Positions 11,371 through 40,143 of a stretch of DNA of 44,060 bases are shown here, one piece after another. The notes below the pieces were generated by a model, which searched no databases, was not told the DNA's origin, and saw only the letters and a list, made by a program, of their open reading frames with translations. The position numbers were made by a program, and so were the translations under genes. This DNA comes from a virus, in IMG/VR virus record IMGVR_UViG_3300045988_092570. One strand, 5' to 3'. How positions within the stretch are numbered: the first letter of the stretch is position 1; every line of letters starts with the position of its first letter.

Positions 11371-13088
11371 GAGAGATCGAAGTGCGCGAGCTGCCGTATC
11401 TGCCGCTGGGCCATCAGGGAGAGAACGAGGCGCAGAGGATCGTCTGGCGCGGCCTTGCGGACAGTTGGGCGCGGCTGTACGGCGAGGGCGTCTTCGCGCT
11501 GACGGTGCTGCGTGAGGGTGACAGCGCGCCGTATCCCGCGAGCCTTAAGAGCGAGAACGGTGACGTGATCTGGACGCTGAGCAACGCCGACACTGCAAAG
11601 GCGGGCGAGGGCATGGCCGAGCTCACCTACACCGTGGGCGGCATGATCGCCAAGAGCCGGACGTGGCGCACGGTGGTCGAGCCGTCGCTGAGCGCAAACG
11701 GCACGACCAAGCCGCCTCCGGCCTATCAAAGCTGGGTAGATGAGGTTTTGCGGGCGGCGGCGGATGCGGAGACGGCGGTTTCCAAGATGCCATACGTCGA
11801 CGAGACCACGGGCAACTGGTTCAAGTGGGACGCCACGGCGGGCGCCTTTGCCGACACGGGCGTTGCCGCGACCGGACCGACCGGCCCCAAGGGGGAGACC
11901 GGCAGCGGCTTCAAGGTGCTGGGCTATTACGGCACGAAGGCTGCGCTCGACGCCGCGCAGAAAGCGACCGCAGCGGCAGGCGATGCCTACGGCGTGGGCA
12001 CGGCAGAGCCCTATGACATCTACATTTTCGACGGTATTACCGGCGAGTTCATCAACAACGGCCCCTTGCAGGGCGCAGACGGTGCCGCCGGTAAGGACGG
12101 CGTGACGTTCACGCCGAGTATGAGCGACGACGGCGACTTGTCGTGGACGAACGACGGCGGCAAGGCGAATCCGCAGACCGTGAACCTCAAGGGCCCGAAG
12201 GGCGACACAGGCGGCGGTCTTGGCGCATATCAGTTTTCCGTCAACGACGATGGCGACCTGATCCTGACATACGAGGGAGACCAACCGCCGCAGTACGCCA
12301 TCAACAATGACGGCGATCTGATTTTGACCACGGCGGACGGGGACACGATCAATCTCGGGCACGTCAAAGGTGGAAAGGGTGATACCGGCCCGCAAGGAAA
12401 ACAGGGCAAGGAGGGGCCTCAAGGCATCCAAGGTCCGCAAGGCATCCAGGGTAAGGACGGTCCGCAAGGGAAAAAGGGTGACACCGGTCCGCAAGGCATC
12501 CCCGGTCCGAAAGGAGAAAAGGGTGACCCTGGCATTGACGTAACCGGCGCACAGGTCGGGCAAATCGCCAAAATCACGGCGGTGGACACTGACGGCAAGC
12601 CGACAAAGTGGGAACCAGTGGATATGCCGACGGGCGGCGAATTGAGCTGGCACTTAGTAGCCGATTTAACAGTAGCCGAAGCGGTTACCGATGTGGTAAT
12701 CACTAAGGACGCAGAAGGAAATACCATTCTGCAATATAAACCCATTGCGGTTGGTATATGGGTTTACATACCGGCTGATGATACGCAAAGCAGTACTAAC
12801 GGTGGCCTCTGGTTTTGGCTAAATGGGCAGAACAGCACACCGTATAGATCAATTGTAGCCTTCAATAACTGGAAGACCAAAGAATGGCGTCGCGGCGTTT
12901 TTACATTCGGAACTGAGAAAGCTGCATTCACGGCATTCTCCGGAAGCTCCCCAGATATGATGCCGCTATGGCCTAATGAGTATGGCAGCATGTTCGACAA
13001 AATTACGTTGCATGTGCATCCAACCGGCGATCATATCCCGGCCGGATCAAAGATACGCGTGCTGGTTTTGGGCAAAAAACCAACTTAA
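11367..13088 (+). CDS. Tail fibre or receptor-binding protein with collagen-like repeats
   Basis: 573 aa with several G-X-Y runs, including 55 consecutive residues ([22 protein letters not shown]...). A BppU-like N-terminal region. The C-terminal about 150 aa lie in the lower-GC island. Confidence 0.8.
12369..12533 (+). repeat. Collagen-like G-X-Y triplet repeat within the fibre gene
   Basis: 55 uninterrupted Gly-X-Y triplets read from the translation. Confidence 0.9.
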
Positions 13089-13178
13089 AGGGAGTGAACA
13101 CATGGCATTAAAAACAGTATACAAGGACGGCCTGCTCGTCGTGTTGAATGGGCGGACGCTGATGATGGAGGAGACGGC

Positions 13179-13364
13179 ATGAGAATTTGTGAAAACGGCA
13201 TCTACCGCGACATGACCGCTGAAGAGATCGCGGAGCTGGAAAAGCTGGCGGCAGAAGCGCCCACGCCCGAACCATCGCCAGAAGACCGCATTGCGGCGCT
13301 TGAGAAAGACAACGCTGAGCTACGCGACGCGCTGGATGCGCTGTTAAGCGGGGTGACGGCATGA
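13179..13364 (+). CDS. Small fibre-associated protein (61 aa)
   Basis: ORF coupled to its neighbours. Its acidic coiled-coil C-terminus (DRIAALEKDNAELRDALDALL) is typical of small ORFs that follow fibre genes. Confidence 0.6.
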   Translation: MRICENGIYRDMTAEEIAELEKLAAEAPTPEPSPEDRIAALEKDNAELRDALDALLSGVTA

Positions 13365-13525
13365 GTGAGCTGAGAGATCGCGTCGTCGCTTATAACAAGG
13401 AGGTCAAGGATGCACTACAGGCAGTTTACTCCGACCTTAATCAAGGGCAGAGAAAGAAACTGCTGCGTAACCCTGCCATCCGTGCAATGTTTGAGCGGTA
13501 TGGCGTAGAGATTGGAGGGAACTAA
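13361..13525 (+). CDS. Small protein (54 aa)
   Basis: ATGA overlap with the previous CDS, and its TAA stop directly abuts the next ATG. Hand translation: MSELRDRVVAYNKEVKDALQAVYSDLNQGQRKKLLRNPAIRAMFERYGVEIGGN. Confidence 0.55.
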   Translation: MSELRDRVVAYNKEVKDALQAVYSDLNQGQRKKLLRNPAIRAMFERYGVEIGGN

Positions 13526-14182
13526 ATGCCACAAATCAATCTTGGCAAAGTGCGGATGACCGATGCAGATTATGCGGTCAACGATCCGAACCATCTTGGG
13601 TACATTGCTAACCGCCCTTGTTTCTTTACGGGGAAAACCATCGAAGAAATTTTGATGGATGCGGTGTCTGTGGAAATTGGTGCCGAAAAAAACTACAGCG
13701 GAAAACCGATGAAAGCCGGAGAAACATACCGGTTGACCATTAAAGGTACTACTGTGGAACTCACTGCATTTACGGAGACAGTAGATGGTGTCACCGCTAC
13801 GATAATTGGCGACAGTTATGTGGATTTCGCAGCCTCTGAATCTGGCACCGGATCATTTGTGCCGAAATATGGGTATCTGCTCGGTGTAATGTCCGAAGGC
13901 GGCGAATCGCATCTTGGTCTGATCCCCACCGACGGCACCGGGGAAATGCTAAAAGCAGCCTTTGGGCTGACAGCGGAGGAACTGGCGGCAAAGAATGTCT
14001 CCGTGACGCTGACCCACCCTGTTCCAGAGGTGGTGAAGCTGGACAAGCGCCTGCTGCCAGATGATATTGGCGCATCTCCTATCAAAATCATTGATATTGG
14101 CAGTGGCTCGTTTGACCCAAATGGAATTGATTTCACGCAATACTCCCCTGGGGACGTCATCTTAGTTGTCGGAAATATGTGA
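13526..14182 (+). CDS. Hypothetical structural-module protein (218 aa)
   Basis: ORF in the lower-GC island, contiguous with the fibre genes. Confidence 0.65.
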   Translation: MPQINLGKVRMTDADYAVNDPNHLGYIANRPCFFTGKTIEEILMDAVSVEIGAEKNYSGKPMKAGETYRLTIKGTTVELTAFTETVDGVTATIIGDSYVDFAASESGTGSFVPKYGYLLGVMSEGGESHLGLIPTDGTGEMLKAAFGLTAEELAAKNVSVTLTHPVPEVVKLDKRLLPDDIGASPIKIIDIGSGSFDPNGIDFTQYSPGDVILVVGNM

Positions 14183-14191
14183 GGTGATCGT

Positions 14192-15499
14192 ATGATTACA
14201 AGAGGGTCGTTGCTGCTGGACGGTGTTTCTGTTGGCGAAGTGTTTGGCTATAAGGACGAACAAGGTAATCTCCGTTCCAGACAAGGCTTGGTGACTATCG
14301 CAGAGGACAAGACAGCGAAGTCAACAATGCTTGTTGCCGCAATCACAAGTACGCCTACTGGCTATGTTTTTGATAACACTAAGGTTACTGCCGGAGACCA
14401 ACACATTACCGGCACTGTAATTCCCGTATCTGTAACAGTTCATCTATCGGCGGTTCCCGGTGAGTTGACGGCAAATGCGTTACTGAGCGGAGAAATTGGT
14501 CATACGCAGGCGGACGACACAGGCATTTGGGGCTGCGATATACATTTAGATGCCGACAGCATTATATATGCGTGGGCGACGCTGCCTTTGGAATTCGGCT
14601 CGACCAACGCCAAAATGTCCATCGACAAAAAACCGGACAAGCCTGATCCGGGTCCAGACCCAAAACCTGATCCCGACCCAAAACCGGAGCCTGAGCCGGA
14701 TACACCGAGGGCGTATACAATAACCGTGGATTTTGAAGCCGAAGCAGAGGTAACTGGCAGCGGCGCGGTTAGTTATATGAACGTGCAATTATCCGGCCCG
14801 CCTGACTTGGCAAACGTAGAACTATATGTATATGACGGCGGCACATACCGTCAGCCATCCGACCCTATCAGCGTCAGCTCAGATGGCGTATTGCACGCAA
14901 GTGGCATCTATCCGGCGACGCAATTCCGCATTAAAGCAGGTACGGACGTCGCAAATAGTTCGCTGAGTGTAAATGTTTTAGAGTACAAAGCTGAGTGCTT
15001 GTCCGGTGATACTTTAATCACCCTTGCGGATAGGACGGAGAGGCGGTTGGACGAGCTGACCGGCACCGAAATGGTACTTGGCGGCGATATGTGCCCTGCC
15101 CGCATCCTGCGACTGGCGAGAGGAATATGGTCGCCAAGCCACACGCTGTATCATTTTGATGACGAGACTACCATCGACGAAATCCATGAGCACCGCTTTT
15201 ACAATGTCGATCAGGGCTTTTGGCAAAAGCTGAAAAACTGGCACATTGGAGATCATGCCAAGCGACTGGACGGCGGCACACCGGTGCTGGTGTCCGTGGA
15301 ACCGGTGGCAGAGCGAGCAGAGATGTTTGGTATCTGGGTGGAGCGCGGCTCCTATTGGGCGAACGGTCTGCTATCCGGTGATGCATCCGCAAACCGCCCC
15401 TTGCTGGCTGATGCCACTGTCGAGCAGGCGATCGATATGGCCGAGTCTCTGGTAGAAAAAGATTTGATGCGGATCTTGGTAGGAGGTGTACCGCTGTGA
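14192..15499 (+). CDS. Hint/BIL (intein-like) domain protein with a Pro/Asp/Lys linker
   Basis: 435 aa. Contains a PDKPDPGPDPKPDPDPKPEPEPD linker. The C-terminal domain starts with CLSGDTLITLADRTERRLDEL (intein block-A-like) and ends with SYWANGLLSGD. Confidence 0.7.
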   Translation: MITRGSLLLDGVSVGEVFGYKDEQGNLRSRQGLVTIAEDKTAKSTMLVAAITSTPTGYVFDNTKVTAGDQHITGTVIPVSVTVHLSAVPGELTANALLSGEIGHTQADDTGIWGCDIHLDADSIIYAWATLPLEFGSTNAKMSIDKKPDKPDPGPDPKPDPDPKPEPEPDTPRAYTITVDFEAEAEVTGSGAVSYMNVQLSGPPDLANVELYVYDGGTYRQPSDPISVSSDGVLHASGIYPATQFRIKAGTDVANSSLSVNVLEYKAECLSGDTLITLADRTERRLDELTGTEMVLGGDMCPARILRLARGIWSPSHTLYHFDDETTIDEIHEHRFYNVDQGFWQKLKNWHIGDHAKRLDGGTPVLVSVEPVAERAEMFGIWVERGSYWANGLLSGDASANRPLLADATVEQAIDMAESLVEKDLMRILVGGVPL

Positions 15500-16647
15500 A
15501 AAAGCTGATGCTGGTGAGTGATGAAAGCATTTTGGGCGGATGTGCCCGCAGTGGCGTCGCGGAGGTGGTGGATAGTCTGGGCAATGCCTTGACCGAGGAC
15601 TATGCCGTATCCGTTGTATGCCCGGACGGGAACGGTGTATGGGCGCGGATGGCTGCAAATCTAAGGCAGTTTTCCGATGGCGTGCGGGTTTGCCGTCTGT
15701 TCGGTGTGGACTACTATCTTTTACGCCACTGGCCGGATGGACTGGTCACGGTGACGGAAGCAGTTGCACCGGACGTGCTCCACAATTTCGCCGCGCCGGA
15801 ACTGTTAACGGCATTGCCAAAGCGCCCTCCCCGGTGCGTGTATACCATCGATCAGGCGAACTTTGCGCGAGGGCACGAGGACGCGCTTAGAAATTACGAT
15901 GCGGTGACAACGGTATCCAAGGCGTATGCTAAAGAGCTGCTGGAGGGTGATGATAAGCTGGCGCAGACGCTTGATAATATCAACTTCCGCGGTATTACAA
16001 ATGGGATTCTGGCTCCCGTCTTTGCACCGGAAAAAGGGTTGATGATCCCGGCAAAATACAGCGCCGAGGATTTTACCGGCAAAGCTATTTGCAAGGAGCG
16101 GCTATGCCGTACCTATGGAATTCCATCCGACAAGTGCATCTATCTGATGATGTGCCGTTTGGTACGGGACAAGGGCATTGATGGCGTGTTGGACGCGGTG
16201 CATACCATCCGAGACAGCGGTGGGCTTTTACTGCTTGTCGGCAAAGGCGAAAAGCAGTACGAGGCACAACTTGCGAAGCTGACGCGCGAGGATGGCGTGC
16301 TATGGGTGGATCGCTGGCCGTCTGCGGTGCAGGCGGTGCCGCTGCTGGCCGGGGCGGATTATTACCTATCTCCATCCGTTGCAGAACCGTGCGGACTCAT
16401 GCCGATAACCGCTTGCCGCTATGGTTGTATTCCAATCACAACGCTCAACGGTGGCTTGGCGGACAACATGGACGAGGAGATTGCCGTGCTGGTGCGCGAT
16501 AGTGTAGTGAGAGCGGTGTCGGAGGCTACGGCTTTGTATGCAAACCCAGATGCACTTGTAGCCAAGCGAGCGGCTTGTATGCAAAAAGACTTTAGTTGGG
16601 CAACACGCAAGGCAGAATATTTGGAGGTGTACCGTGGAGCAGTATAG
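15496..16647 (+). CDS. GT-B glycosyltransferase, glycogen/starch-synthase-like (GT5/GT4-like)
   Basis: GTG start in a GTGA overlap with the Hint gene, with AGGAGG 9 nt upstream. The C-terminal PSVAEPCGLMPITACRYGCIPITTLNGGLADN parallels GlgA PSRFEPCGL...YG..P.V..TGGLADTV. The N-terminal KTGGL box is degenerate (LGGCARSGVAEVV). Confidence 0.7.
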   Translation: MKKLMLVSDESILGGCARSGVAEVVDSLGNALTEDYAVSVVCPDGNGVWARMAANLRQFSDGVRVCRLFGVDYYLLRHWPDGLVTVTEAVAPDVLHNFAAPELLTALPKRPPRCVYTIDQANFARGHEDALRNYDAVTTVSKAYAKELLEGDDKLAQTLDNINFRGITNGILAPVFAPEKGLMIPAKYSAEDFTGKAICKERLCRTYGIPSDKCIYLMMCRLVRDKGIDGVLDAVHTIRDSGGLLLLVGKGEKQYEAQLAKLTREDGVLWVDRWPSAVQAVPLLAGADYYLSPSVAEPCGLMPITACRYGCIPITTLNGGLADNMDEEIAVLVRDSVVRAVSEATALYANPDALVAKRAACMQKDFSWATRKAEYLEVYRGAV

Positions 16648-17404
16648 AGACATGATCGAGGTTGCGCTGAAGAACTGGTGTGAAAATGCGCCGGAACATC
16701 TGCGCAAGCCGTTGGAGCTGGCCTTACTGAGCGGCGGACACCGCATCCGTCCTATCCTTACTTTGGCTTGGTGCGAGGCATCTGGAGGACGCGCGGAGGA
16801 TGCCCTGCCTATGGCGGTAGCCGTGGAGCTGGTACATACCATGTCCCTGATCCACGATGATCTCCCGTGCATGGATGGGGCGGTGGAGCGTAGAGGATTG
16901 CCTGCGTTGCACACTGCCTATGGTGAAGCCGTTGCGGTACTTACCGGAGACATCCTGCTGTCGGCGGCGTTTGGTGTAATCGCCGGGTCCGATCTTCCAC
17001 CGGAGCAAAAATCTCGTGCAGTCACCTATTTGTCCAATGCAGCAACAGCTATGGCAGAGGCGCAAGCATGGGAAGTGATTGGATACTCAGCAGAGCTGGA
17101 CGCTTTACTTCATATCCATGCTGGTAAGGCCGGGGCGCTGATGGAAGCTGCCTGTGTCCTTGGAGTCATAGCCGCTGGTGCCTCCGATAGCCAAGAAGAT
17201 GCGGCTGCGCGGTATGGCATGGGGCTTGGCGTGGCCTATCAGATCATGGATGATCTGCGGGACGGCGATGGAGTCTGCACTCTGCTGGAAGCGTGCGCCG
17301 CACGTGACTTAGCACGGGCGTATCTGGCAGACTGCACGGTGTCCGGTGACGATCATGCCCAGAGGATGCTTCGTAGCATTACGGAGGGGGTGGCGGCACT
17401 GTGA
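16634..17404 (+). CDS. Short-chain trans-polyprenyl diphosphate synthase (FPP/GGPP synthase-like)
   Basis: GGHRIRP motif, first Asp-rich motif HDDLPCMDGAVERRG, and second Asp-rich motif YQIMDDLRD. 14-nt overlap with the glycosyltransferase gene. Confidence 0.85.
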   Translation: MEQYRDMIEVALKNWCENAPEHLRKPLELALLSGGHRIRPILTLAWCEASGGRAEDALPMAVAVELVHTMSLIHDDLPCMDGAVERRGLPALHTAYGEAVAVLTGDILLSAAFGVIAGSDLPPEQKSRAVTYLSNAATAMAEAQAWEVIGYSAELDALLHIHAGKAGALMEAACVLGVIAAGASDSQEDAAARYGMGLGVAYQIMDDLRDGDGVCTLLEACAARDLARAYLADCTVSGDDHAQRMLRSITEGVAAL

Positions 17405-18048
17405 GGCATCTCGCCATCATTGCCGACGGAAATCGACGTTGGGCGGCATCACAGAATCTCCCTAAAGAAGCTGGACACGCGCAGGGGTTGAATGTTATCG
17501 AGCGCTGCTGCGAGTGGGCAATTTCGCGTGATGTGAAAATGCTGACGGTCTACTGTTTTTCCACTGAAAACTGGGGACGCGAGAGCGGCGAAGTAGATCA
17601 CATCATGGATCTTGCTCGATGGTATTTTCGGGAGCGCCGTGAATGGTTTGTAACCCGTGGTATCCGCGTGCGTTTTGCGGGTCGGCGGGATCGTCTGGCG
17701 AAAGATCTCGTAGAGGACATGGAGACGATGGAAGAGGAAACCAAGCAAGGTGACGCCCTGACGCTGACAATCTGCGCAGATTATGGCGGGAGAGACGCCA
17801 TCACCCGCGCTGTACAGCACGGGGCGAGAACAGAGCAAGAATTAGATGTGGCGCTGACAGGCGAAGTCCCGACACCGGACGCCATCCTCCGAACGGGTGG
17901 AGAAATGCGGCTCTCTAACTTCCTGTTGTGGCAGGCCGCCTATGCGGAATTATTCTTCTCGAGAACCTTTTTCCCAGCACTGGAAGATGCGGAGTTGGAT
18001 GAGGTGCTGAATGAGCATGGGGAGAGAAAACGAAATTATGGGACATGA
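17401..18048 (+). CDS. uppS: Cis-prenyltransferase, undecaprenyl diphosphate synthase homologue
   Basis: IIADGNRRWA, FSTENWGR and RTGGEMRLSNFLLWQAAYAELFF match UppS hallmark motifs. GTGA overlap with the previous gene. Confidence 0.85.
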   Translation: MRHLAIIADGNRRWAASQNLPKEAGHAQGLNVIERCCEWAISRDVKMLTVYCFSTENWGRESGEVDHIMDLARWYFRERREWFVTRGIRVRFAGRRDRLAKDLVEDMETMEEETKQGDALTLTICADYGGRDAITRAVQHGARTEQELDVALTGEVPTPDAILRTGGEMRLSNFLLWQAAYAELFFSRTFFPALEDAELDEVLNEHGERKRNYGT

Positions 18049-18068
18049 CAGGATAACGGAGGGGGAAC

Positions 18069-18371
18069 ATGGACAACGGTAAGCATTATGACGATGCGGC
18101 AATCGCGCTGATCGAATCTCGGTGCAAGAGCAACACGCACAGGATCAACGAGCTGACCGAGCATCAGGTGGCGCTTGATAGGCTCGTGACCTCGGTCGAG
18201 GTCTTGGCCACGAAACAAGAGACAGTCGAAGGCGACGTCAAGGAGATCAAGGAGGACGTGAAGACCATGACAGGCAAGGCGGGGAAACGATGGGACAGCA
18301 TCGTGGACAAGCTGCTCGCCGTGCTCGCGGGGGCGTTCCTCGCGTGGCTAATTTCGGGAGGCATGGCATGA
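18069..18371 (+). CDS. XhlA-like lysis-associated membrane protein
   Basis: 100 aa with an N-terminal coiled coil and a single C-terminal TM segment (LLAVLAGAFLAWLISGG). First gene of the lysis cassette. Confidence 0.55.
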   Translation: MDNGKHYDDAAIALIESRCKSNTHRINELTEHQVALDRLVTSVEVLATKQETVEGDVKEIKEDVKTMTGKAGKRWDSIVDKLLAVLAGAFLAWLISGGMA

Positions 18372-18484
18372 TGGATGATTTTGCAGAGGTGGCAGTTGCC
18401 ATCATTGTGGGCGCGGCCCTGCTGCTTGGCGCGGCGGTGTCCATTAAGGGCATCCGCGCACTCTGGATGTGGTGCATGGCATGA
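18368..18484 (+). CDS. Small single-TM protein (38 aa), holin-like or accessory
   Basis: ATG overlaps the previous stop. VAVAIIVGAALLLGAAVSI forms a hydrophobic core. Confidence 0.5.
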   Translation: MMDDFAEVAVAIIVGAALLLGAAVSIKGIRALWMWCMA

Positions 18485-18705
18485 AGAAGCTGAAAGAGCA
18501 CTGGGGCAGGATGAAGAAGCGGGACAAGTACATATCCATCGCCATTCTCAGCTTGACGTGGTACACCGTCGCCTCGCTCGCCATGACGGCGCTCGGCGTG
18601 CCGCCGCCGGACGTACTGACGGAACGCTGGTTCAAGGCATGGACGACGGAGCTTGTCGTTGTGGCGGGCATCAAGATTTTTAGGAAGGACGATACAGTTT
18701 TATGA
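18481..18705 (+). CDS. Two-TM holin-like protein (74 aa)
   Basis: ATG overlaps the previous stop. Two hydrophobic segments (ISIAILSLTWYTVASLAMTAL and TTELVVVAGIKIF). Confidence 0.55.
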   Translation: MKKLKEHWGRMKKRDKYISIAILSLTWYTVASLAMTALGVPPPDVLTERWFKAWTTELVVVAGIKIFRKDDTVL

Positions 18706-18896
18706 ATGAATTACTGAACAAAAGAATTGCGAACCTTCTCAGCGTGAAGAGCCTCGTGACGATTGCGCTGACGGCGACCTTCTGCGCGCTGACGGTACAG
18801 TCAAAAGTGACGCAGGAATTTAACACCGTGTACCTCATGGTCATCGCCTTTTACTTCGGCACGCAGAACGCGGCGGGCAGCGCGAAGGGAGAGTGA
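18702..18896 (+). CDS. Two-TM holin-like protein (64 aa)
   Basis: Coupled to its neighbours and lies immediately upstream of the amidase. TM segments LVTIALTATFCALTV and VYLMVIAFYFG. Confidence 0.6.
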   Translation: MNELLNKRIANLLSVKSLVTIALTATFCALTVQSKVTQEFNTVYLMVIAFYFGTQNAAGSAKGE

Positions 18897-19546
18897 GCGG
18901 TGTGAATATCCGCAAATATCCGGCCAACGCCGGGAACGTCGGCGGCACGCGCGCGGCGAGCGGCATCCGCTACATCGTCATCCACTACACGGGCAACGAC
19001 GGCGACACGGCGATGAACAACGCCAAGTATTACGCGGGCAACGTCGTGAAGACCAGCGCGCACTACTTCGTCGATGCAAATGAGATCGTGCAGAGCGCGG
19101 ACGACCTGCGCATCGCGTGGGCGGTCGGCGGGAAGAAGTACCCGTCCTGTTCTCAGACGGGCGGCGGGACGATGTACGGCAAGTGTAAGAACGCCAACAG
19201 CATCAGCATTGAGCTGTGCGACGCGAAGAAGGACGGCGTTTACGCGCCGGACGCGCGTGCCGTGGAGCGGGCGCTTGCGCTGACGAAAGCTCTGATGAAG
19301 AAGTACAACATCCCCGCGAGCAACGTCATCCGCCACTTCGACGTGACGGGCAAGCTGTGCCCCGCGTACTGGTCCGGCAAGGAGAACGCGGGCAAGTGGG
19401 AAAAGGAATTCCATGGCAAGCTGACGGCGCCCGATTACCGCGCGCAGCTTCAGAAGCGCGCGGGGTTGACGGACGGCACGATGGATTACCTCTCGGCGTA
19501 TCAGTACGGCGACGACCTCGTCCGGAAGCTCGCGACGATGAAGTAA
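18893..19546 (+). CDS. N-acetylmuramoyl-L-alanine amidase (Amidase_2/PGRP-type endolysin)
   Basis: IRYIVIHYTGN, SAHYFVD and SISIELCD match amidase_2 zinc-site and substrate motifs. Confidence 0.85.
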   Translation: MSGVNIRKYPANAGNVGGTRAASGIRYIVIHYTGNDGDTAMNNAKYYAGNVVKTSAHYFVDANEIVQSADDLRIAWAVGGKKYPSCSQTGGGTMYGKCKNANSISIELCDAKKDGVYAPDARAVERALALTKALMKKYNIPASNVIRHFDVTGKLCPAYWSGKENAGKWEKEFHGKLTAPDYRAQLQKRAGLTDGTMDYLSAYQYGDDLVRKLATMK

Positions 19547-24576: not shown

Positions 24577-27500
24577 ATGGGACGACTTGTTAAGACAACG
24601 CCTGCGGCACAGGAGCAGCAGGAAGAAAAGCGCACGGTGGTCGGCACCGGCGCGCACGGTCGGCTTGTAAAAACAGGGGATGTGCAGCGCACATCCCCTG
24701 CGGCGAATACGGCGAAGACGCCGACAGCGCAGAGCGTTTATCAAAAAGCACTGGACGAAGCGATGATGAAACGCGCGGCGGCGGATCAGAAAAACAAAGA
24801 GCGCGGCCGCAAGAGCTACAATCGCACACACGCGCAGGAGGTGCGCGAGATCACCGGTGACAAGACAAAAAAGAGCATTACGCCGATCATCAAGAGCGCG
24901 GCGGCGGGCTATGCGGCGGATATGGTCGGCGCGGCGGACACGCTGCTGCGTGCGCCGAGTGGCCTGAACTACGCAGCGAGCCAGGAACGCGGAGAGATCG
25001 AAGCCTCAAAAAAGAACATCGCCGCCTATACCGAAAAGCTCAAGGCGGCGAAGACCGAGGAGGAGCGCCAGCAGTGGCAGACACTTATCGACCGCAACAA
25101 GCGCCTCATCGAGATCAACAGCAAGACCGCGGGCGAGCGGGTGAAAAACTATCAGGACGCGACGAAGGGTGCACAGGAGACGTTGCAAGGCACCTATCAG
25201 AAGTTGCGCAAGACCGCATCCGACAACATGGAAAAGGCGAACGAAGGGCTCACGCCGGTCGGCAAGTACCTCAATAACGTCGGCGTGGCAGGCGCGCAGA
25301 TGGTCGCCGACGCGGCGCTCGGCGGCGGCAGCGCGCTCGGCCCGATGTTCCTGCGCGTATTCGGCGGAAACTCGCAGGAGGCGGCGGAGGCGGCGGACAA
25401 GCCCGGTATGAGCGCGGCGGAACAGCTGGACGCACAGAACCGGGCGCTGCTGTACGGCACGGCGAGCGGCGCGGTGAGTATTGCGACGGAAAAGATCAGC
25501 AACGTCGCAGCGCCGTTCAAGAAAGCGTTCGGCGGCGGTTTCCTCGACAAGGCAATCGACGGTGCAATCGCCAAGATGAACGGGAACGCGGCGGGACGGC
25601 TCGCCCTGTCGTTCCTATCCGAGGGCGGCGAGGAAGTTATTGAGGACATCGTGCAGCCAGCCTTGCAGACGATCTACACCAAGAAGCGGCACGAAAACCT
25701 CGGAGAATACCTCAGCGAGCTTGACGCGGCGGAGATCCTGAACGACTTCCTCGTCGGCGGTGCGCTCGGCCTGCTGGGCAGCGGCGTAGAAGGCGTTCAG
25801 AAAATGGACGCACGCCTCGCAGCCGAGCGAGCTGCGGCGGAGACGCAGGAACCGACGGCATCGGTGGAGACGACGACACCGGAAGCAACTGCGCCGGCGG
25901 CGCAGCGGCAGGCCGAGCCGACAGTCGAGCAGCGGCCGGTGCAGCGGCAGAACACCGAACCGGTACCCACGCCAACCGTCGGGCAGCAGAACACCATGCC
26001 CGCGCAGCCTGCGCCGACGCCTGAGAGCGCGCAGGACATGGGCGAGGGTAATTTGACGCCCACACAGCTGAACGCCGCACAGGGCGCAGCAGAGGGCAAA
26101 GCGGACGCCCTGGACGCGGGCAAGCGCGTTAATCTTCTTGAGTACAGCAACGAGCAGAACGCGCAGAAGGTTGAAGACGGACTGAAAGACGGCACGCTGG
26201 CCGTGGACGCGAAAGAGAATATCTATCGCGTAGACGAGGACCAGCACATCGACCGGCGCGACAGCGCGAGCGTGGGCGAGCGAAACGTGAACGCCTTCCA
26301 GTTCGATCACCCCGAGCTGCACAGCTATTACGCGGACGCGGCGGCGGTCTTGCAGGAAGAAATGAGCTTCTCCCAGAAGGGCGGCGAGCTCATCCGCCGG
26401 ACGAGCCGCGAGGCGGGCGATGACGAATACATCCGCGCCAAGCGCGGCGTGAGCGAGCGCATCGCACGGCTGCTGGATGACGAGGGCGTACGCTACGATG
26501 ACATCGACCGCTCGCTGAGTGCGATCATCCACAACCACGGGCAGGAAAACTTCGCGGCGGCGAAGCGCGTAGAGCTGCTGCTGGACGACATGCTGACAAA
26601 CGGCTATACGGATATCCACGGGCAGCACATTGCACCGAACGAAGAATACATTGCAGCAAAGAAAGCCATCCCCGGCGCAGACATGAGCGAGCGGACGCAC
26701 GAAGAACTCCCGATCTATGATATGCCGGAGGGGCGGAACGGAGGAATTGACAATGCAGGACAAGAAGCACGGAACGATGCCGCGGGGGCTGAGCTTGCCG
26801 ACGCTGCCGAAAGAGGCGCATCAGGCGAGGACAACGCAGCGCGTGCACTATCTGATGGAGCTGCCGAACGGGGAGAGCGCCGGGGTAACGGAAGAGAATC
26901 TGAGCGCATTCCTCGAGAAGTACGGAACGTCGGCGGAGAAGACGGAAACGCGCTGACGGTACAACAGCGGCTTGCGGCATCCGGTATCTCACAATTCATC
27001 AGCCCGCGGGAGGCCAACGTGCCGAACGGCGCAAGCGGCGATAACACCGTCACCATCTTCGACGAGGCGGACTGGGACCAGGAGCTTATCGGCGCGGCGG
27101 ACTGGGCAAAGTCCAAGGGCGTGAAAAAGGTGACGGCGCTGCTGGGCGTCATCAAGGTTGAAAAGGACGGGAAAACCGGCAGAATTTTCGGCGCGTTCAA
27201 CGCCGACACGGGCGAAATTTTCGTCAATGCCGGTTCAGTGCAGCGCAGCGTGAGCGAGACGATCGAGCATGAAACAGCACATTATCTGGCCGAAGTGGCG
27301 AGGCGCGAGAACGTCAGGACGTTTATGCGCGACGTTCAGAGCCGGTACAGCAGCGAAGAGTGGGGCAAGGTGTACGATGCCTACTTTGACCGCTATGCAG
27401 CGCTGACGGGCGACTACGCGGGAATGAGCGAGAGCGATATCGAGCTCTATGTGTGGGAAGAGATCATGGGCGATGCCTATGCCGAGATCGACCAGTATGA

Positions 27501-30500
27501 CGAAAAGGCGAGCCGATTCAGCCGAGAGGCCGAAAGCGCGCTGTCGCAGAGCGGAGAGGAAGGCGAAAACGCCCTACAGGTCGAGAGCTCACAGAACGCG
27601 GCGGAACAGGGCCGCGAGACTGCGGCGGCGACGGAACGCAGGACAGGGCCGCCGGAGAAGTTCAGCGTGCTCGAAGAGGTCGAAGGGGAAAACGGTACAT
27701 ACGGCAAGGGCGTCATGCTCGACACGAATCTCTTTGACGGAATCCGCCCGAGAGACTGGGGCAAGACGCTCGGCCGATACGTCTATAACAATATGGCAGG
27801 AATGGAGCTGACGGCATACGATGCAGCCGGAAAGCCAGAAACGATCTATCTTGCCCGCACAAACGACCGCGTGCAGAAAGACGGCGCGAAAAACAGCCAC
27901 AAGGTCATCGACAAGCTGGCGAGAAGCACGGGCGACAATATCCGCAGCCTTGCGGTCGTCCACCTTGACGAAGCGCTCACGACGTCCAGATATGAAAATT
28001 CCACCGATGAACACAATCATCAGTGGATGGATGAAAACGGATGGGAACACAGAAAGACATATCTGCAAGACCGATCCGGCAATATTTACGAGGCAACGCT
28101 GAACATTGCGGATGGACGGGATCGCAAGATCCTGTACGACATCAACAACATTCGGCTGGTGGACAAAGCAAAAAGCCCCGACAAGCACACTGCTGCCGAG
28201 GCAAAAGCCGGAGAAATTACCGGCGGCGCCGTGCCCTCAGCCGTTACCGGAGGGGCTCGCTCAACATCACGTAATTTCTCCGAAAAGAGAATAGCAGACC
28301 GCGGCGGAAATGTCAAGTCACCGACGCCGGGCGATGAGACCCGGCAGCAGATCATGGGCGAAGAAAACAAGGACACGGCGCCACTCCGCAATGTCGGCAT
28401 TGAAACTGCCGAGCCGGTGGCACGCGCCGATGACCTTGCGAACGCAAGCGTATCACAGAACAAAGGAGATGTCAAGCCGACAGGTCGATTTTCGGTAAGC
28501 GGCAGCGCGGCGGAACAGCTGAACCGGGGCCGCAGGGACATCGCCGACGCAGAGCTTGCGGACGCGGAGATTGCCGGGCAGGAGTGGTCCTATGAAAAGG
28601 CGGAGCAGGACGGCAAGCGTGGGGACTACGCGTCGATCCCTGCGGAGTGGAAAACGAAGCTCGAGCGCGCACGGACGGCGGCAACGAACAACATCAAGCC
28701 ATCCGGCTTCGACAGCTACGATGCCTATCTCGATGCGCTGGACAAGCAGCGCGCGGCAGATCGGGCTGAGCGGCTGCGCGTCAAGAGCCGGGACGAATTC
28801 AAGGGCACAAAAGCGCTCGACGAGTTGGGCGTGAAGATTGCGAACAGCGCAGGCATTTACCACAATGCAGAACAGCTTATCGCCAATGACAAGGCGGCAA
28901 AGAGCATCCAGAACGCAACGAAGCGCGCCGAGCAGCGCTTGGGCGCGACGCGGCGGGAAAAGACCATCGCACGAGACATCGCAAACGGTGAGCGCTCGAT
29001 GTCCGATATCCCTCGCAGCGTGAAAAAGTCGCGCGTGCTTGAGCTCGTGGACTATTACACGGCACAAAAGGCGACGAAGACGGGGCTTTTGCAGCAGCAG
29101 CGCATCGAGATCAATGACGCGCTGCGCGAGCAGGCGCGCGAGCTCATCGGAACAGAAGCGCCGGAGATCAACCGAAAGGGTCTGAACAAGCTCTTCGACC
29201 CGAGTAAAGGCATTGTGCTTTACCATCGCACGCCGCAGCGCATTATGCGCGCGCTCTTTGGCTGGAAGCAGGGCCAGCAGATCAACGAGGCTGTCTTTGA
29301 GCCAGTCTACGAGAACGAGCAGGAGCGCAAGCGCTTTATCAACCGCATGTTTGACGAGGTTCGAACCTTTGAAGGCGCGGACGGCAAGAAAAGCGCACTG
29401 AACAAGGACGAGAGCGCCTTTGCGCAAAGGCTGAAAGAGGGACGAACCGTCGAGGAGCTGGTTGAAAAGTCCGGCGCGGCGGAAAGCATCAGAGCGGCGG
29501 CGGAAAACCTGAAAAATGGCGCAGAGATGAAAGACGCCGCGCGGGAATTCAGTCTCGACAAAGGCTCGCGCGATCTGGCTCGGCAGTATGCCGACTGGCT
29601 GCAAACGCAGGATGACTACGCGGCGGCAAAGAACGTCGACCGCGTGAAGGTTGAGAACGCGATCGAGAAATACACCGAACTCTATGACAAGCTCTACGCC
29701 GCGATCAACGACTTCCTTGTAGCGCACGGGTACGAGCCCATCGGCTTTATCAAAGGCTACGCGCCGCACTTCCAGACGAGCGAGGCAAACGGAAAGCTCG
29801 AGAGCGCACTCAAGGCGATCGGCGTCGACCTCGGCTCCGGCGTGGGCAAACTGCCGACGAGCATCGCAGGTCTGACGAAATCCTTCAAGCCGAACAAGCG
29901 GTACAATCCGTTCTTCCAGCACCGCAGAGGCAATGAGACGGACTACGATATCGTCAAGGGCTTCGAGACATACGTGGATTATGCGAGCGACGTGCTCTAC
30001 CACACGGACGACATCATGCGCGTGCGTCAGATGGCAAACTACCTGAGATCGACATTTGCACCGGAAGAAATGAAGGTGGACATCGACCAAATGGAGGCCA
30101 TGCGCTACGCTCCGGCGGATGTGAAGGAAGAATACTTGCGCGATAAAAAGAAGATCACGGGTGATACCTTCCTGAGCTATGAGGATCTGACAAACCTGAT
30201 GGAACAGTATACAGACGAGAAGTACCGCAGCATCGAGGACGCGACCGAATTCAGCGACCTTGTTTCGTGGATGGATGACTACGCGAACAAGCTCGCGGGC
30301 AAGCAACTCTTCGAGGACCGCGCAATGGAGCGCGAAGTCGGGCGCGAAGCGCTGAACGGCGCGAAGAAGCTCAACCGCATGTTCGCCCGCGCGAATGTGG
30401 CAGGGAACCTCTCGTCGGCGCTGAACCAGACGGCGCAGCTGCCGATGATCGCAACCGAACTCGGACAGAAGTACACATGGCGCGCCGTGGGCGATATCCT

Positions 30501-32725: not shown

Positions 32726-34222
32726 CTAAAGGACGAGGCGGTAGTGGATGGTGAGGGTGTTGGCGGCTTTGTTCCAGGTGATATTGTCGGCGACGCTGCG
32801 GACGGCGGCGTTCTTTTCGGCAACGGTGGTGTCGGGGGATTCCAGCGTTTTGACGACGGCACGGAGAGCGGAGCGCAGCAGCTTCGGATCGACGGCGGCC
32901 TGGTCCTCTTTCTGCATGGCGGCGATCTGCGCGTCGAGATCGGCGATGCGCTTCTGCACGGCGGCCTTGCTGGCCTTGTACTCTTCGACCGTATCGGCGC
33001 CGGTGAGATAGGCGTCGCGCAGGCGGTCGAGCATGCGAACGGCGGAATCGCGCGCGGCCTCGACGGCGGATAGGGAAGATGCGGAGCCGTCGCTGGAACG
33101 GACCACATCGAAGGTCAGAGACGAACCGCGGGCGGCGTCCTCCTGCAGGCGGGAGATCAGTGCAGCCTCCAGCGCGTCGCGGCGCACCGTCTGCCGGACG
33201 CGGCAGGAGCCGCGCACGTAATTGTTGCAAGCCATATAATCCGGCGTATTCACGATGAGGCCACCGCCGCAGGCGGCACAGCGGACAAGGCCGGAGATCC
33301 AATGCTTCTGCGTTCCGGACGCGCGGGCATAGCGCGGGTACAAAAGCTTCTGCTCGTCGATGCGGTGCTGAACGGCATTGAAAGTCTCTTCGTCGATCAG
33401 CGGCTCGTGCTTGCCGTCGACGAGGACGACATTCTCGTTCGAAAAGTCGCGGCGGGTGCGGCCGGCCGGATTCCAGCGCAGTTTGCCGATATAGACGGGG
33501 TTGCGCAGGATATATTCGATGGTCCGGTTTTCGAATCTGCCGCCGCGGTGCGTGCGCTGGCCGCATTCGTTCATCCAGCGCGCGAGCGGAAAGCAGCCTT
33601 CGCCAGCGAGGTAGCGACGGAACAGCTCTTTCACAAAGCCATCCTCGGGCGGCTTCGGCACGAAAACGTGATCCTTGATGCCGTAGCCATACGGCGGATT
33701 GCTCTGCACCTCGCCGCGGCGGTGCTTTTCCTCCATGCCGCGCTTGACCTCCTGGGCAAGGTTGATGCTGTAGTATTCGTCCATCGCCTCGATGAGCGCT
33801 TCGGTAATGAGGCCCATGCCGCCCTCGGCCACGGGCTCGGAAATGGAGATGACATCAATGCCGAGCTGCTTGCGCAGGATAGACTTGTACATGACCGCAT
33901 CATCGCGGTTGCGGGCAAAGCGCGAAAACTTCCAGAGCAGAATCGCGTCGAAGGGCTTCGGCTTCGTCTTGGCGACGCCGATCATGCGGCGGAATTCGTC
34001 GCGCTTTTTCACGCCGCGGCCGGAAATGCCCTCGTCCATGAAGACGAATTCATCCGGCACGATATAGCCGTTGCGCGCGGCCCATTTGCGGACCTCGACG
34101 AGCTGCGAGGCGGGGGAGAGCTCCACCTGGTCATCGGTGGAGACGCGGATATAGGCCGCGGCGATGCGAAGATCAGGCAGCGGCGCGGGGACGGAAGAAG
34201 TAAAGCCTTTCGGCGGGGTCAT
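32726..34222 (-). CDS. int: Large serine recombinase (integrase)
   Basis: N-terminal resolvase catalytic motif AAYIRVSTDDQ, a recombinase domain, and a Cys-rich zinc-ribbon (CAACGGGLIV...CNNYVRGSC) followed by a coiled-coil. AAAGGAG upstream. Confidence 0.9.
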   Translation of the reverse strand: MTPPKGFTSSVPAPLPDLRIAAAYIRVSTDDQVELSPASQLVEVRKWAARNGYIVPDEFVFMDEGISGRGVKKRDEFRRMIGVAKTKPKPFDAILLWKFSRFARNRDDAVMYKSILRKQLGIDVISISEPVAEGGMGLITEALIEAMDEYYSINLAQEVKRGMEEKHRRGEVQSNPPYGYGIKDHVFVPKPPEDGFVKELFRRYLAGEGCFPLARWMNECGQRTHRGGRFENRTIEYILRNPVYIGKLRWNPAGRTRRDFSNENVVLVDGKHEPLIDEETFNAVQHRIDEQKLLYPRYARASGTQKHWISGLVRCAACGGGLIVNTPDYMACNNYVRGSCRVRQTVRRDALEAALISRLQEDAARGSSLTFDVVRSSDGSASSLSAVEAARDSAVRMLDRLRDAYLTGADTVEEYKASKAAVQKRIADLDAQIAAMQKEDQAAVDPKLLRSALRAVVKTLESPDTTVAEKNAAVRSVADNITWNKAANTLTIHYRLVL

Positions 34223-36917: not shown

Positions 36918-37265
36918 ATGAGCGTGATTCAAGACGCCATTGCCGCCATTGAGGGCCAGCAGCCGAAAGAGCGCTCGGCGGTGTGGATGGTGGGTGAGCA
37001 GCTGAAAGATATGGTCCGCGGCAATGAGGCCGCGGCGGCACTGCTACTGACAGACCTGACGCAGAACAAGGAGATGACGCTCGCGGCGGCGGAGAAGAAG
37101 ATCGCCGAGCGAGCCAAAAAGAATAAGGTCGGCAACTGCGGGTGCGTGACGCCCGCGGAGGCCGAGGACATCCTGCGTGAGTTTTTCGGCCTGCCGGAGC
37201 GCGGCACAGACGTAGCACCGCAGACGGAGAGGCGCAAGGTCGTGGACCTTGCGGACTTTTTATGA
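36918..37265 (+). CDS. PcfK-like protein (the family reported to include the anti-CRISPR AcrIIA9)
   Basis: GNCGCVTPAEAEDILREFFGL matches the typical PcfK-like C-terminal motif. It lies directly upstream of a PcfJ-like gene, which is the usual pairing. ATG 36918 was chosen because it follows two hairpins. Confidence 0.55.
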   Translation: MSVIQDAIAAIEGQQPKERSAVWMVGEQLKDMVRGNEAAAALLLTDLTQNKEMTLAAAEKKIAERAKKNKVGNCGCVTPAEAEDILREFFGLPERGTDVAPQTERRKVVDLADFL

Positions 37266-39115: not shown

Positions 39116-40143
39116 GCGAAACAATGGAAATGGCCGTGGCCGGCGAGGTGCGCAGCATCACCGCCATCACGGACGAGATCATTTTTTACAAAAATGTCGG
39201 CGGACAGGCCGTCATCGAGATTGGCAAGCGGCTGATCGAGGCAAAAGCACAGCTCAAACACGGGGAATGGCTGCCGTGGCTGAGCGAAAAAGTGGAGTTT
39301 TCGGAGACGAGCGCGCAGCGATTTATGCAACTTGCAAGGGAGTACGGAAATACCTCACTGGTGGGGGATTTGGGAACCTCGAAAGCCTTGGTATTACTGG
39401 CTTTGCCGGCATCTGAGCGAGAGAATTTTGCGAGCGAAAAACACGTTGTCAACGGGGAAGAAAAAAGCGTCGCCGAGATGAGCAAACGCGAGCTCGAAGA
39501 GGCCATCCGGCAGCGCAAGATCGCTGAGCTGGAACGCGACAAGGCGCGGCGCGAATTGGACGAACAGCGCAAGGCCAACGAGGAGGCCGCGGCGGAAGCA
39601 CAGAAGGCGCAGGAGGCGGCGGAGGCCGCCCGCGCCGAGGTGGAGAACGCGCAGGGCACGGCGCTGGCCGCGCAGGAGCGCGCGGCGGAACTGGAACGCG
39701 AAATGAAGGAGCTGCGCGAGAAACCTGTAGACGTCGCCGTACAGACGGTGGACGCGAGCGAGGAACAGATCGCCGCGGCGGTGAAGGAGGCGGAGCTTTC
39801 CGCCAAGGAGAAGATCGGCAAGAAGGCCGAGGAGCTGAAAAAGGCCAGAGAGGACCTGGCACAAGCAAAAGCGGACGTGCAGGCCGCGGCAGAAAAGGCC
39901 GAAAAGGCAGAGGACGAGGCGGCAGCGCTGCGCGCTGAGCTGGACAAGGCCAGAAAAAGCGCCGCGGCGATGGACAACAAGGCGCTCGCGGAGTTTGCCG
40001 TCCTGTTCCGGCAGGCGCAGGAGACGGTGAACCGCATGACGGAGATCGTAGACGAGCTGGATGATGAGAGCCGCCCGAAGATCTACCGCGCGCTGGGCGC
40101 GCTGCGGGACATGATCGCTGAAAAGGCGGGTGAGGGCGCGTGA
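39112..40143 (+). CDS. DUF3102-domain protein with a long coiled-coil
   Basis: N-terminal IEIGKRLIEAKAQLKHGEWLPWLSEKVEFSETSAQRFMQLAREY matches the DUF3102 signature. The remainder is E/A/K-rich coiled coil. Confidence 0.7.
   Translation: MSETMEMAVAGEVRSITAITDEIIFYKNVGGQAVIEIGKRLIEAKAQLKHGEWLPWLSEKVEFSETSAQRFMQLAREYGNTSLVGDLGTSKALVLLALPASERENFASEKHVVNGEEKSVAEMSKRELEEAIRQRKIAELERDKARRELDEQRKANEEAAAEAQKAQEAAEAARAEVENAQGTALAAQERAAELEREMKELREKPVDVAVQTVDASEEQIAAAVKEAELSAKEKIGKKAEELKKAREDLAQAKADVQAAAEKAEKAEDEAAALRAELDKARKSAAAMDNKALAEFAVLFRQAQETVNRMTEIVDELDDESRPKIYRALGALRDMIAEKAGEGA

Follow-up and report, generated by a model that had tools for sequence, protein, structure and literature searches.

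Organization of the tail-protein and enzyme cassette

A 44,060-nucleotide stretch of viral DNA (IMG/VR virus record IMGVR_UViG_3300045988_092570; the whole stretch analyzed is hereafter called the window) carries a tail-protein gene that ends in a Hint (Hedgehog/intein) domain. This gene is followed by genes for a GlgA-like glycosyltransferase (GT), a trans-prenyl diphosphate synthase and a cis-prenyltransferase. The synthases belong to the families that make farnesyl or geranylgeranyl diphosphate (FPP or GGPP) and undecaprenyl diphosphate (undecaprenyl diphosphate synthase, UPPS), respectively. An earlier sequence-only reading of this DNA had treated the three enzyme genes as a late-operon module. 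The features considered here are as follows.

14192..15499, + strand: Hint-terminated tail protein, 435 amino acids (alignments, AlphaFold2 model, Foldseek)
14627..14707, + strand: Pro/Asp/Lys-rich linker KKPDKPDPGPDPKPDPDPKPEPEPDTP between the N-terminal region and the beta-rich domain of the tail protein
14996..15379, + strand: Hint domain (alignments, Foldseek)
15380..15496, + strand: acidic three-helix C-terminal extension, about 40 residues, AN..LL..AT.EQA.DMA.S..E...L
15496..16647, + strand: mini GlgA-like GT-B glycosyltransferase, 383 amino acids, GTG start (profile and fold match)
16634..17404, + strand: short-chain trans-prenyl diphosphate synthase of the FPP/GGPP type, truncated, 256 amino acids, GTG start
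17401..18048, + strand: compact UPPS-type cis-prenyltransferase, 215 amino acids, GTG start

By their open reading frames (ORFs), the three enzyme genes occupy positions 15496-18048 and all start with GTG. Their junctions are exactly as the sequence-only reading had described them, with GTGA overlaps at 15496 (Hint gene and GT) and 17401 (trans and cis enzymes), a 14-nt overlap of the GT and trans-prenyltransferase ORFs at 16634, and an XhlA-like gene (18069) that begins 20 nt past the cis-prenyltransferase stop codon. A GGAGG-type ribosome-binding site lies upstream of each cassette start. Between 10 and 22 kb, promoter-like sites (5 versus 5.0 expected from shuffled sequence) and terminator-like sites (13 versus 10.7 expected) occur at chance level, which agrees with the claim that no promoter or terminator separates these genes from their neighbors. 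The motifs quoted in support of the family assignments were all found (16384-16398, 16447-16467, 16835-16876, 16886-16897, 17246-17263, 17425-17445, 17557-17580 and 17890-17958), and the three assignments themselves were borne out by profile matches to PF00534, PF00348 and PF01255.

The three enzyme genes and the Hint domain are under purifying selection, with ratios of nonsynonymous to synonymous substitution rates (dN/dS) between 0.05 and 0.23 (Hint domain, 0.07-0.19; GT, 0.09-0.20; trans enzyme, 0.07-0.16; cis-prenyltransferase, 0.05-0.23). No match for the Hint protein or any of the three enzymes was found in PHROGs. None of the four proteins matches a membrane-protein profile; a hydrophobic stretch over the usual threshold occurs in the trans enzyme alone. 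A search of the cassette for a flippase, a GT-C enzyme or an initiating phosphoglycosyl transferase found none.

The Hint domain is predicted to form a thioester but not to splice

The tail protein consists of a variable N-terminal fragment (residues 1-268) that is tail-fibre-like by position, the Hint domain (269-396) and a helical extension (397-435). In its AlphaFold2 model the predicted local distance difference test (pLDDT) score is 80-97 at residues 172-430, a span that includes a beta-rich domain at about residues 172-268, whose strands begin at residue 175. The extension, which has an isoelectric point (pI) of 4.1, is modeled as helices at 398-405, 410-418 and 422-430 and bears no sequence similarity to the sterol-recognition region of Hedgehog.

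Foldseek returned 43 matches at E <=1e-3, essentially all of them Hint domains that cover the Hint part of the protein. The best is Tetrahymena BUBL BIL2 (6y75, E 2.4e-7, TMt 0.75), and mini-inteins, the bacterial intein-like (BIL) domain of C. thermocellum (2lwy) and Hedgehog (1at0/6tyy, E ~3e-5) are among the others. The window protein has no Pfam match at E <=0.01, and two homologues, L010 (34.6) and L021 (33.8), pass the Hom_end_hint cut-off of 32.1.

In inteins, BIL domains and Hedgehog, the first Cys and the block-B His turn the peptide bond just before the domain into a thioester. The phage domain begins at Cys269 (CLSGDTLITL) and has its block-B histidine at His334 ((T/I)HxHRF), and alignments A2, A3 and A5 show both residues conserved, invariantly or nearly so. 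The domain ends in ANGLLSG, after which come a 39-residue tail and the stop codon. It has neither a terminal His-Asn nor a C-extein, and thus lacks both features that define inteins, namely the C-terminal His-Asn and a Cys, Ser or Thr at position +1 of a C-extein. From these residues, we expect that the Hint domain can form the thioester but cannot splice. Because the terminal Asn needed for splicing is missing, the domain could only release or transfer the N-terminal fragment 1-268.

Some relatives of the tail protein carry DnaJ-type CXXCXGXG zinc-finger repeats before the Hint domain (L010 7469-8839, L021 5926-8001, L024 8266-10068 and L028 5316-7004). These repeats are not present in the window protein. 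At L012/L023 8931-10735, a prophage in a metagenome-assembled genome (MAG) of Lachnospiraceae, a frame change separates the Hint ORF from an upstream 352-residue zinc-finger ORF, and in a related MAG (L024 8266-10068) the same zinc-finger/Hint protein is a single 600-residue ORF. This difference stems from a frameshift, from faulty sequencing or from decay into a pseudogene.

The glycosyltransferase is a short relative of glycogen synthase

The GT matches PF00534 (E 1.1e-12), and its best NCBIfam match is glgA TIGR02095 (5.6e-46). The score of the latter, 157.2 bits, is below the cut-off of 328.45, and the match spans only residues 130-381, the C-terminal two thirds of the protein (profile 205-476). 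The AlphaFold2 model (pLDDT 94.3) is most similar in fold to E. coli glycogen synthase (3cop/2qzs, E ~3e-25, TMq 0.83) and then to starch synthases, whereas no close viral structural relative was found in BFVD. Conserved residues of the family include His96-Asn97, Arg221/Lys226, Glu297-PCGL and GGLADN. Among them, H96, R221, K226 and E297 are the equivalents of E. coli H161, R300, K305 and E377 and are invariant or nearly so. The KTGGL box is degenerate and reads ESILGGCARSGVAE, and only E10, S11, G15, G20 and E23 are invariant in that region of the family. The predicted glycogen-synthase fold, the EPCGL and GGLADN core and the degenerate box therefore all accord with the sequence-only description of this protein. 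We conclude that it is probably a GlgA-type retaining glycosyltransferase that uses a nucleoside diphosphate sugar, yet one that is not filed as GlgA. Its donor may not be ADP-glucose, because one lineage pairs the GT with a UDP-N-acetylglucosamine (UDP-GlcNAc) dehydratase.

The Hint protein and the glycosyltransferase form the conserved core

We examined 15 independent phage lineages (the window type, L010, L011, L026, L061, L012, L024, L013, L028, L021, L025, L030, L060, L063 and L036) and measured the overlap of the Hint and GT genes in 15 representative loci. The set spans large 120-kb siphophages with the cassette between tail genes (L010, L011, L026 and L061; in L010, tape measure, Dit and Tal genes lie upstream), prophages in Lachnospiraceae MAGs (L012 and L024), podo-like phages with giant MuF-type proteins (L013 and L028) and podo-like 42-kb phages. 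GC content ranges from 40 to 60%, with two apparently TAG-recoded lineages (L063 and L036) at 40%. The GT and Hint families as a whole comprise roughly 190 and 210 clusters, respectively.

In all 15 lineages, a Hint domain directly precedes every member of the GT family, and the GT was never seen elsewhere. The Hint stop codon and GT start codon overlap at each of the 15 loci (-4 nt in 11, -1 in two and -68 in two); for comparison, -4 or -1 overlaps are found at 6 of 28 adjacent gene pairs in the window. Across lineages, identities fall as low as 31% for the GT and 35% for the Hint domain, and the pairwise identities of the two co-vary (r = 0.71). What follows the pair is less constant. The cis-prenyltransferase comes after the GT in 10 of the 15 lineages and is absent from five, and the trans enzyme is confined to the window's own lineage (absent in 14/15). 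In L030, a CapE/FnlA/PseB-like UDP-GlcNAc 4,6-dehydratase (2e-84 to 3vvb) lies between the GT and the cis-prenyltransferase, and in L060 a GT2 gene is inserted at the same place. The conserved core is thus the Hint-domain tail protein plus the GT, with the cis-prenyltransferase as an optional add-on. The three-gene module of the sequence-only reading has to be redrawn accordingly: the synteny beside Hint or fibre genes that it suggested looking for does recur, but for the Hint-GT pair, whereas the full set of three enzymes is found in the window's lineage only.

Every GT-linked Hint protein carries the helical extension (about 40 residues). By profile search, a far larger family of phage Hint proteins without the extension came to light; among these, P0017, P0189 and P0178 also have no GT and lie in tail-fibre regions. 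In the examined sample, the extension and the GT go together. One candidate exception, an extension-bearing Hint protein without a GT (P0164/L036), was rejected when tblastn recovered a full-length GT broken only by TAG codons. In that phage (L036 5084-6756, a Hint-GT cassette), all three in-frame stops of the GT are TAG and the gene ends at TAA, and in L063 (5504-7799, Hint-GT plus cis-prenyltransferase) all eight in-frame stops are TAG. One in-frame TAG of these cassettes coincides with Gln341, which is otherwise nearly invariant. This pattern points to TAG-to-Gln recoding in both phages. Because the L036 GT is interrupted by TAG only, we count it as a gene of a recoded phage and not as an exception to the Hint-GT pairing.

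Among close relatives in the window's lineage, the N-terminal fragments are 46-100% identical, the Hint domains 86-100% and the GTs 81-100%. The N-terminal fragment is therefore swapped while Hint domain, extension and GT stay together, so the GT does not track the putative receptor-binding part of the protein. Given that the pair is kept over deep divergence while its surroundings change, we consider a functional link between the Hint domain and the GT likely.

The prenyl synthases retain most catalytic features

The trans enzyme matches PF00348 (1.1e-41, profile 2-191 of 251) with 143.1 bits, above the cut-off of 27. It scores below the cut-offs of the more specific models FPPsyn NF045485 (1.5e-52, 178.5 versus 275) and CrtE (3.2e-50, 170.8 versus 460), and its best matches in the PDB are GGPP and FPP synthases. 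The first Asp-rich motif, HTMSLIHDDLPCMD, includes DDLPCMD at residues 75-81 and is followed by ERRG at 85-88; the second, MDDLRD, has DDLRD at 206-210. Both Asp-rich motifs and the RRG are identical in seven relatives. The position of GGKRxR is occupied by GG(H/R)RIRP (GGHRIRP in the window, a Lys-to-His change), the Lys residues that follow the second motif are lost ('lleacaardlaray' aligned with 'elgktagkdlaakk'), and the protein stops about 30-40 residues early at its C terminus. Its dN/dS of about 0.1 makes activity plausible. Five positions before the first Asp-rich motif (-5) lies a Met, an arrangement that resembles type II GGPP synthases, so the product may equally well be GGPP or FPP.

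The cis-prenyltransferase is matched by PF01255 over the full profile (1-219 of 219, 2.5e-64, 217.2 bits) and by the uppS model TIGR00055 above its cut-off (199.7 versus 109.55 bits), and it aligns almost without gaps with the 225-residue UPPS of C. jejuni (3ugs). Relative to E. coli UPPS it keeps all catalytic and substrate-binding positions checked, namely D26, N28, R30, H43, S71, N74, W75, R77, E81, R194, R200, S202 and E213. The E. coli UppS sequence used as reference was corroborated, in its C-terminal half, by the HMMER alignments to UPPSs in the PDB. In the RxG motif, R242 is replaced by Asn (Thr in the C. jejuni enzyme). Two chain-length positions, L137 and A143, match those of E. coli, and the equivalent of A69 is Cys. 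This is no more than suggestive of a C55 undecaprenyl diphosphate product. The claim that the hallmark motifs of both synthases are intact thus stands for the catalytic residues of the cis enzyme and for the Asp-rich motifs and RRG of the trans enzyme, but not for the diphosphate-binding Lys residues of the latter, which are atypical. With the cis catalytic residues and L137/A143 kept, it remains a reasonable inference, as previously suggested, that the pair could make a long-chain polyprenyl diphosphate from isopentenyl diphosphate (IPP) and dimethylallyl diphosphate (DMAPP).

When the cis-prenyltransferase was searched against 1.8 billion representative proteins, one cluster at 70% identity was recovered, which is the phage clade itself; all other matches were at or below 47%, and the closest named ones are unrelated UPPSs. 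Therefore, the enzyme represents an old and compact clade associated with phages. The same exhaustive search, in which nothing outside the phage clade exceeded 47% identity, rules out that a host uppS gene was captured recently.

Homologues are encoded by two isolated phages. Streptomyces phage Gilgamesh gp102 (L038) is full length, 33% identical and adjoins two membrane-protein genes, and Flavobacterium phage 6H (L039) has a 135-residue fragment annotated as decaprenylcistransferase. Both are uncharacterized and lie in other contexts. The earlier statement that no characterized phage system is known to supply its own lipid carrier holds, although the gene as such does occur in isolated phages.

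A second, unrelated cassette with a cis-prenyltransferase was observed in phages that have the same XhlA, holin-like and Amidase_2 lysis genes (L075-L088, for example L076 2996-7078). Its cis-prenyltransferase (217 residues, PF01255 1e-71) is 45-46% identical to that of the window and overlaps by 4 nt with the gene for a fibre-like 364-residue protein composed of two beta-rich repeats, each about 90 residues long. ORFs of 291 and 188 residues come next, and the whole sits between a tail-fibre gene and the lysis genes. This cassette contains no Hint domain and no GlgA-like GT, and its 364- and 291-residue proteins showed no match to Hint or GT profiles or to PDB sequences.

The cassette belongs to the phage

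Phage structural and lysis genes flank the cassette on either side. The gene order from the fibre to the internal virion protein, which spans the junctions at 12.6 and 18.1 kb, recurs in IMG/VR contigs of about 42 kb (circular size), in more than 20 independent assemblies of human-gut metagenomes and in one 248-kb contig, where the cassette is internal to a prophage. The replicated synteny and the prophage-internal position rule out a chimeric assembly or host contamination, and the location in phage rather than host DNA, which the sequence-only reading had assumed subject to those two junctions, is secure. An explanation by artefact or host DNA, in which host uppS, ispA and glgA-like genes lie beside a prophage or were joined to one as a chimera, could appeal to the lower GC content at 12-19 kb (0.51-0.57) than elsewhere in the window and to the fact that many 'phage' database matches to UppS or IspA are host contamination. 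We give it practically no chance, considering the flanking phage genes, the identical order in independent assemblies and in circular-size 42-kb viral contigs, the place of the genes within the prophage of the 248-kb contig, and the <=47% identity of the cis-prenyltransferase to anything beyond its own clade among the 1.8 billion proteins.

A proposed role in tail-protein modification, and its alternatives

We propose, with a rough probability of 0.45, that these genes constitute a late-expressed mobile cassette whose products modify the tail protein, either by direct glycosylation or by thioester transfer. Cys269 and His334 of the Hint domain would convert the bond before Cys269 into a thioester, and the N-terminal fragment 1-268 would then be released or transferred without splicing. 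The GT would act on or with the Hint protein, for which the helical extension is a likely docking or adduct-recognition element. In one variant, the GT, docked via the extension, would glycosylate the Hint-bearing protein itself. In the other, the thioester-activated C terminus would be handed to a nucleophile, glycosyl or polyprenyl in nature, that the GT and the prenyl synthases produce; of these synthases, the trans enzyme would turn IPP and DMAPP into FPP or GGPP and the cis-prenyltransferase would extend this to a long-chain cis-polyprenyl diphosphate. The prenyl synthases, and elsewhere the UDP-GlcNAc 4,6-dehydratase or GT2, may be accessory suppliers of building blocks that were added stepwise to the Hint-GT core. 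Tail-protein modification is the best-supported reading because the neighboring genes supply sugar or lipid building blocks, the cassettes lie in late structural operons, and no membrane machinery for glycan export accompanies them. The enzymes also look active and are under selection, in keeping with such a role.

A more specific form of this proposal is modeled on Hedgehog, which passes its thioester to cholesterol. By analogy, the phage fragment might be freed with its C terminus esterified to a glycosyl or polyprenyl (glycolipid) group, the adduct being made by phage-encoded enzymes and the extension serving to recruit the GT or the GT product. We view this form as possible but unlikely. 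If true, the outcome would be a lipid- or glycan-tipped tail protein that could serve in host attachment or in membrane penetration, the latter being the function of the myristoylated, autocleaved penetration proteins of non-enveloped animal viruses.

Several considerations weigh against tail-protein modification. The functional reading of the cassette is drawn entirely from gene neighborhood and homology, and 4-nt overlaps are common in phage operons. Phage tail regions often encode Hint proteins with no accompanying GT, which means that Hint function needs no GT; likewise, the second cassette, with neither Hint domain nor GT, implies that the cis-prenyltransferase may have value independent of a Hint-GT pathway. 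A C55-lipidated protein would be awkward for virion assembly in the cytoplasm. Lipid-acceptor GT-B enzymes have basic membrane-binding N-domains, and the N-domain of the phage GT is acidic (median pI 5.0, n=49), which argues against a polyprenyl-phosphate acceptor. Finally, the first 140 residues of the tail protein have pLDDT <50 in the AlphaFold2 model, and no assignment was found for them.

The sequence-only reading had listed possible roles in the undecaprenyl phosphate (Und-P) pool, in receptor remodeling or in lysis timing, all of which leave the strict Hint-GT coupling unexplained. The leading alternative is envelope or receptor remodeling, in which the GT would decorate a host wall glycopolymer or a precursor linked to undecaprenyl diphosphate (Und-PP) at the cytoplasmic face, blocking superinfection or the re-adsorption of progeny to debris, while the prenyl synthases replenish the undecaprenyl carrier and the Hint adjacency merely links a fibre gene to a receptor-modifying gene. 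There is precedent in TarP, a prophage-encoded glycosyltransferase for wall teichoic acid (WTA) in S. aureus, and in P22, whose seroconversion genes adjoin the tailspike much as the present cassette adjoins fibre genes. A temperate phage, a UPPS-type enzyme that makes the universal glycan carrier, accessory UDP-GlcNAc 4,6-dehydratase and GT2 genes typical of surface-glycan synthesis, and a second cassette with a cis-prenyltransferase but no Hint domain or GT are all compatible with it. Nevertheless, the cassette has no promoter or terminator of its own and is embedded in the late tail operon, even between tail genes in siphophages, so that expression in lysogens is unlikely. The GT co-varies with the Hint domain and not with the variable N-terminal fragment presumed to bind the receptor, the flippase, GT-C and initiating phosphoglycosyl transferase of such pathways were not found, and the GT-specific extension on the Hint protein is left without explanation. 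We therefore hold remodeling to be a doubtful, if serious, alternative. A lysogenic-conversion moron of the gtr-like seroconversion type is ruled out: no flippase, GT-C or GT2 with transmembrane segments was found in the cassette, and promoter- and terminator-like sites are at chance level. The earlier preference for late over lysogenic expression agrees with the operon continuity; the phage is temperate, however, and 'late lytic' is read from operon structure only.

The genes could instead be auxiliary metabolic genes, with prenyl synthases that raise the Und-P/Und-PP (or FPP/GGPP) pool for wall integrity or lysis timing, a GT that redirects ADP- or UDP-glucose, and a Hint adjacency that arose by chance because cargo tends to collect between fibre and lysis genes. 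In favor of this, the genes lie just upstream of the lysis genes in the window's lineage, L012, L013 and the second cassette, but in the large siphophages the cassette lies inside the tail module, distant from the lysis genes. Both prenyl enzymes are under purifying selection and cis-prenyltransferase homologues occur in unrelated isolated phages; yet the cis-prenyltransferase is missing from five of the 15 lineages and the trans enzyme from 14, so lipid supply is not the core function. Because the Hint-GT adjacency is found in 15/15 lineages and the GT never elsewhere, unlike freely moving cargo, we judge this account improbable. A related idea, that Und-P is sequestered to trigger lysis, was rejected because the cis-prenyltransferase would counteract it. 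The tight coupling itself might be explained if the released Hint-plus-extension fragment were a regulatory or scaffolding subunit of the GT, with the complex acting on a third substrate and self-cleavage setting one GT partner per tail protein. Translational coupling, Hint/GT co-variation and the subfamily-specific extension would all fit, but this scheme gives thioester chemistry no role and leaves its substrate unspecified, and we know of no precedent for a Hint fragment as a GT subunit. It seems to us very improbable.

If conjugation at the tail protein is correct, it would give bacterial viruses their first example of Hedgehog- or BIL-type conjugation and represent a new class of post-translational modification of virions. 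It would have consequences for host recognition in phages abundant in the human gut, and might offer a self-contained tool for glyco- or lipo-conjugation of protein C termini. If envelope remodeling applies instead, the cassette would still be the first phage module with its own supply of lipid carrier and would broaden what is known of phage auxiliary metabolism.

Comparison with known systems

Each protein is within or like a known family, and it is their combination that is found in no known system. Like Hedgehog, the tail protein has a C-terminal Hint domain with Cys first, a block-B His, a short helical region next to it and diverse N-terminal domains, and in Hedgehog the thioester of the N-terminal fragment is resolved by an external lipid nucleophile. 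The phage extension differs in being acidic, about 40 residues long and without sterol-recognition similarity; moreover, the system is that of a bacterial virus, in which neighboring phage genes would supply the candidate adduct, a glycosyl or polyprenyl compound. To our knowledge, no Hint domain has been tied to a glycosyltransferase, and no phage makes its own polyprenyl lipid. Tetrahymena BIL2 has been described as a 'dispensing platform' that conjugates its upstream domain to external nucleophiles (PMC8616854). It is the best structural match to the window's Hint domain, and BILs are likewise Hint domains without classical splicing, but BIL2 retains the C-terminal Asn and moves a ubiquitin-like domain to lysines. 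Bacterial BILs are parts of secreted or toxin proteins, and none is tied to a glycosyltransferase or to prenyl synthases.

The GT shares its fold with GlgA (CAZy GT5), together with the C-domain motifs E-PCGL, GGLAD, R..QKG and an HDW-like HNF. It lacks, however, about 95 residues relative to GlgA, its N-domain is reduced and its KTGGL box degenerate, and it never lies in a glg operon but always after a Hint tail gene. The two synthases represent the same families, in pathway order, as the housekeeping enzymes UppS and IspA/CrtE; here, they are phage-encoded in a late operon, the cis-prenyltransferase is of a compact clade, and the trans enzyme is truncated with Lys changes. Phage GTs tied to host recognition or to the virion surface are found in gtrABC, TarP and the glycosylation systems of mycobacteriophages, whose virions are glycosylated by late-expressed phage GTs according to work cited in PMC11256854. 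The cassette has no GtrA, GtrB or GtrC and is not placed in a lysogeny module, the GT differs from TarP in fold class, and Hint domains and prenyl diphosphate synthases are absent from all of these systems. A literature search found no description of the cassette, of a function for phage UPPS, or of Hint tail proteins linked to glycosyltransferases, and nothing among the GenBank phages of INPHARED is closely related to the GT, to the trans enzyme or to the portal (all <43% identity). The cassette may be a variant of phage glycan-modification modules or of Hint autoprocessing, or it may be categorically new.

Genome setting and lifestyle

The window represents a temperate tailed phage of a type that is abundant in the human gut. 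Other features are as follows.

4460: terminase
5926: portal
9919: major capsid protein
11367: collagen-like fibre
13179..14182, + strand: three small genes (61, 54 and 218 amino acids) that accompany the cassette into another phage backbone (L007/L008)
18069..19546, + strand: lysis cassette with an XhlA-like gene, two small hydrophobic ORFs and an Amidase_2 endolysin
21462: internal virion protein
24577-32070: ORF of 2497 amino acids without a Pfam or PHROG match
32726..34222, - strand: large serine recombinase with Resolvase, Recombinase and Zn_ribbon_recom domains

The assignment as temperate follows from the large serine recombinase, and the window's phage type was found integrated in the 248-kb contig. 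In the lysis cassette, the XhlA-like protein corresponds to phrog_937, and the hydrophobic ORFs of 78 and 64 amino acids are read as holin-like. The 2497-residue ORF is probably a polyvalent ejected protein, since its counterpart in a related prophage (L032, 2696 residues) shows faint matches to MuF_C and ART-PolyVal. Genes for a REP_ORF2-G2P-like replication protein, a 617-residue PcfJ-like protein and a DUF3102 protein are also present (1645-2400 and 37262-40143), and these are more typical of plasmids or conjugative elements than of phages.

GC content is 0.51-0.57 across 12000-19000 and 0.59-0.65 in the rest of the window. The low-GC block comprises the mosaic C terminus of the fibre, the Hint gene, the cassette and the first lysis genes, and is consistent with horizontal exchange. 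Region 13179-18048 is held in common with L007/L008, which differ in their fibre and carry an M15 lysin together with a tyrosine integrase of the Tn916 type. The three small genes upstream of the Hint gene are 79-82% identical in L007, whose fibre, lysis and integrase genes differ. The lysis genes of the window point to a Gram-positive host, and its relatives are prophages of Lachnospiraceae.

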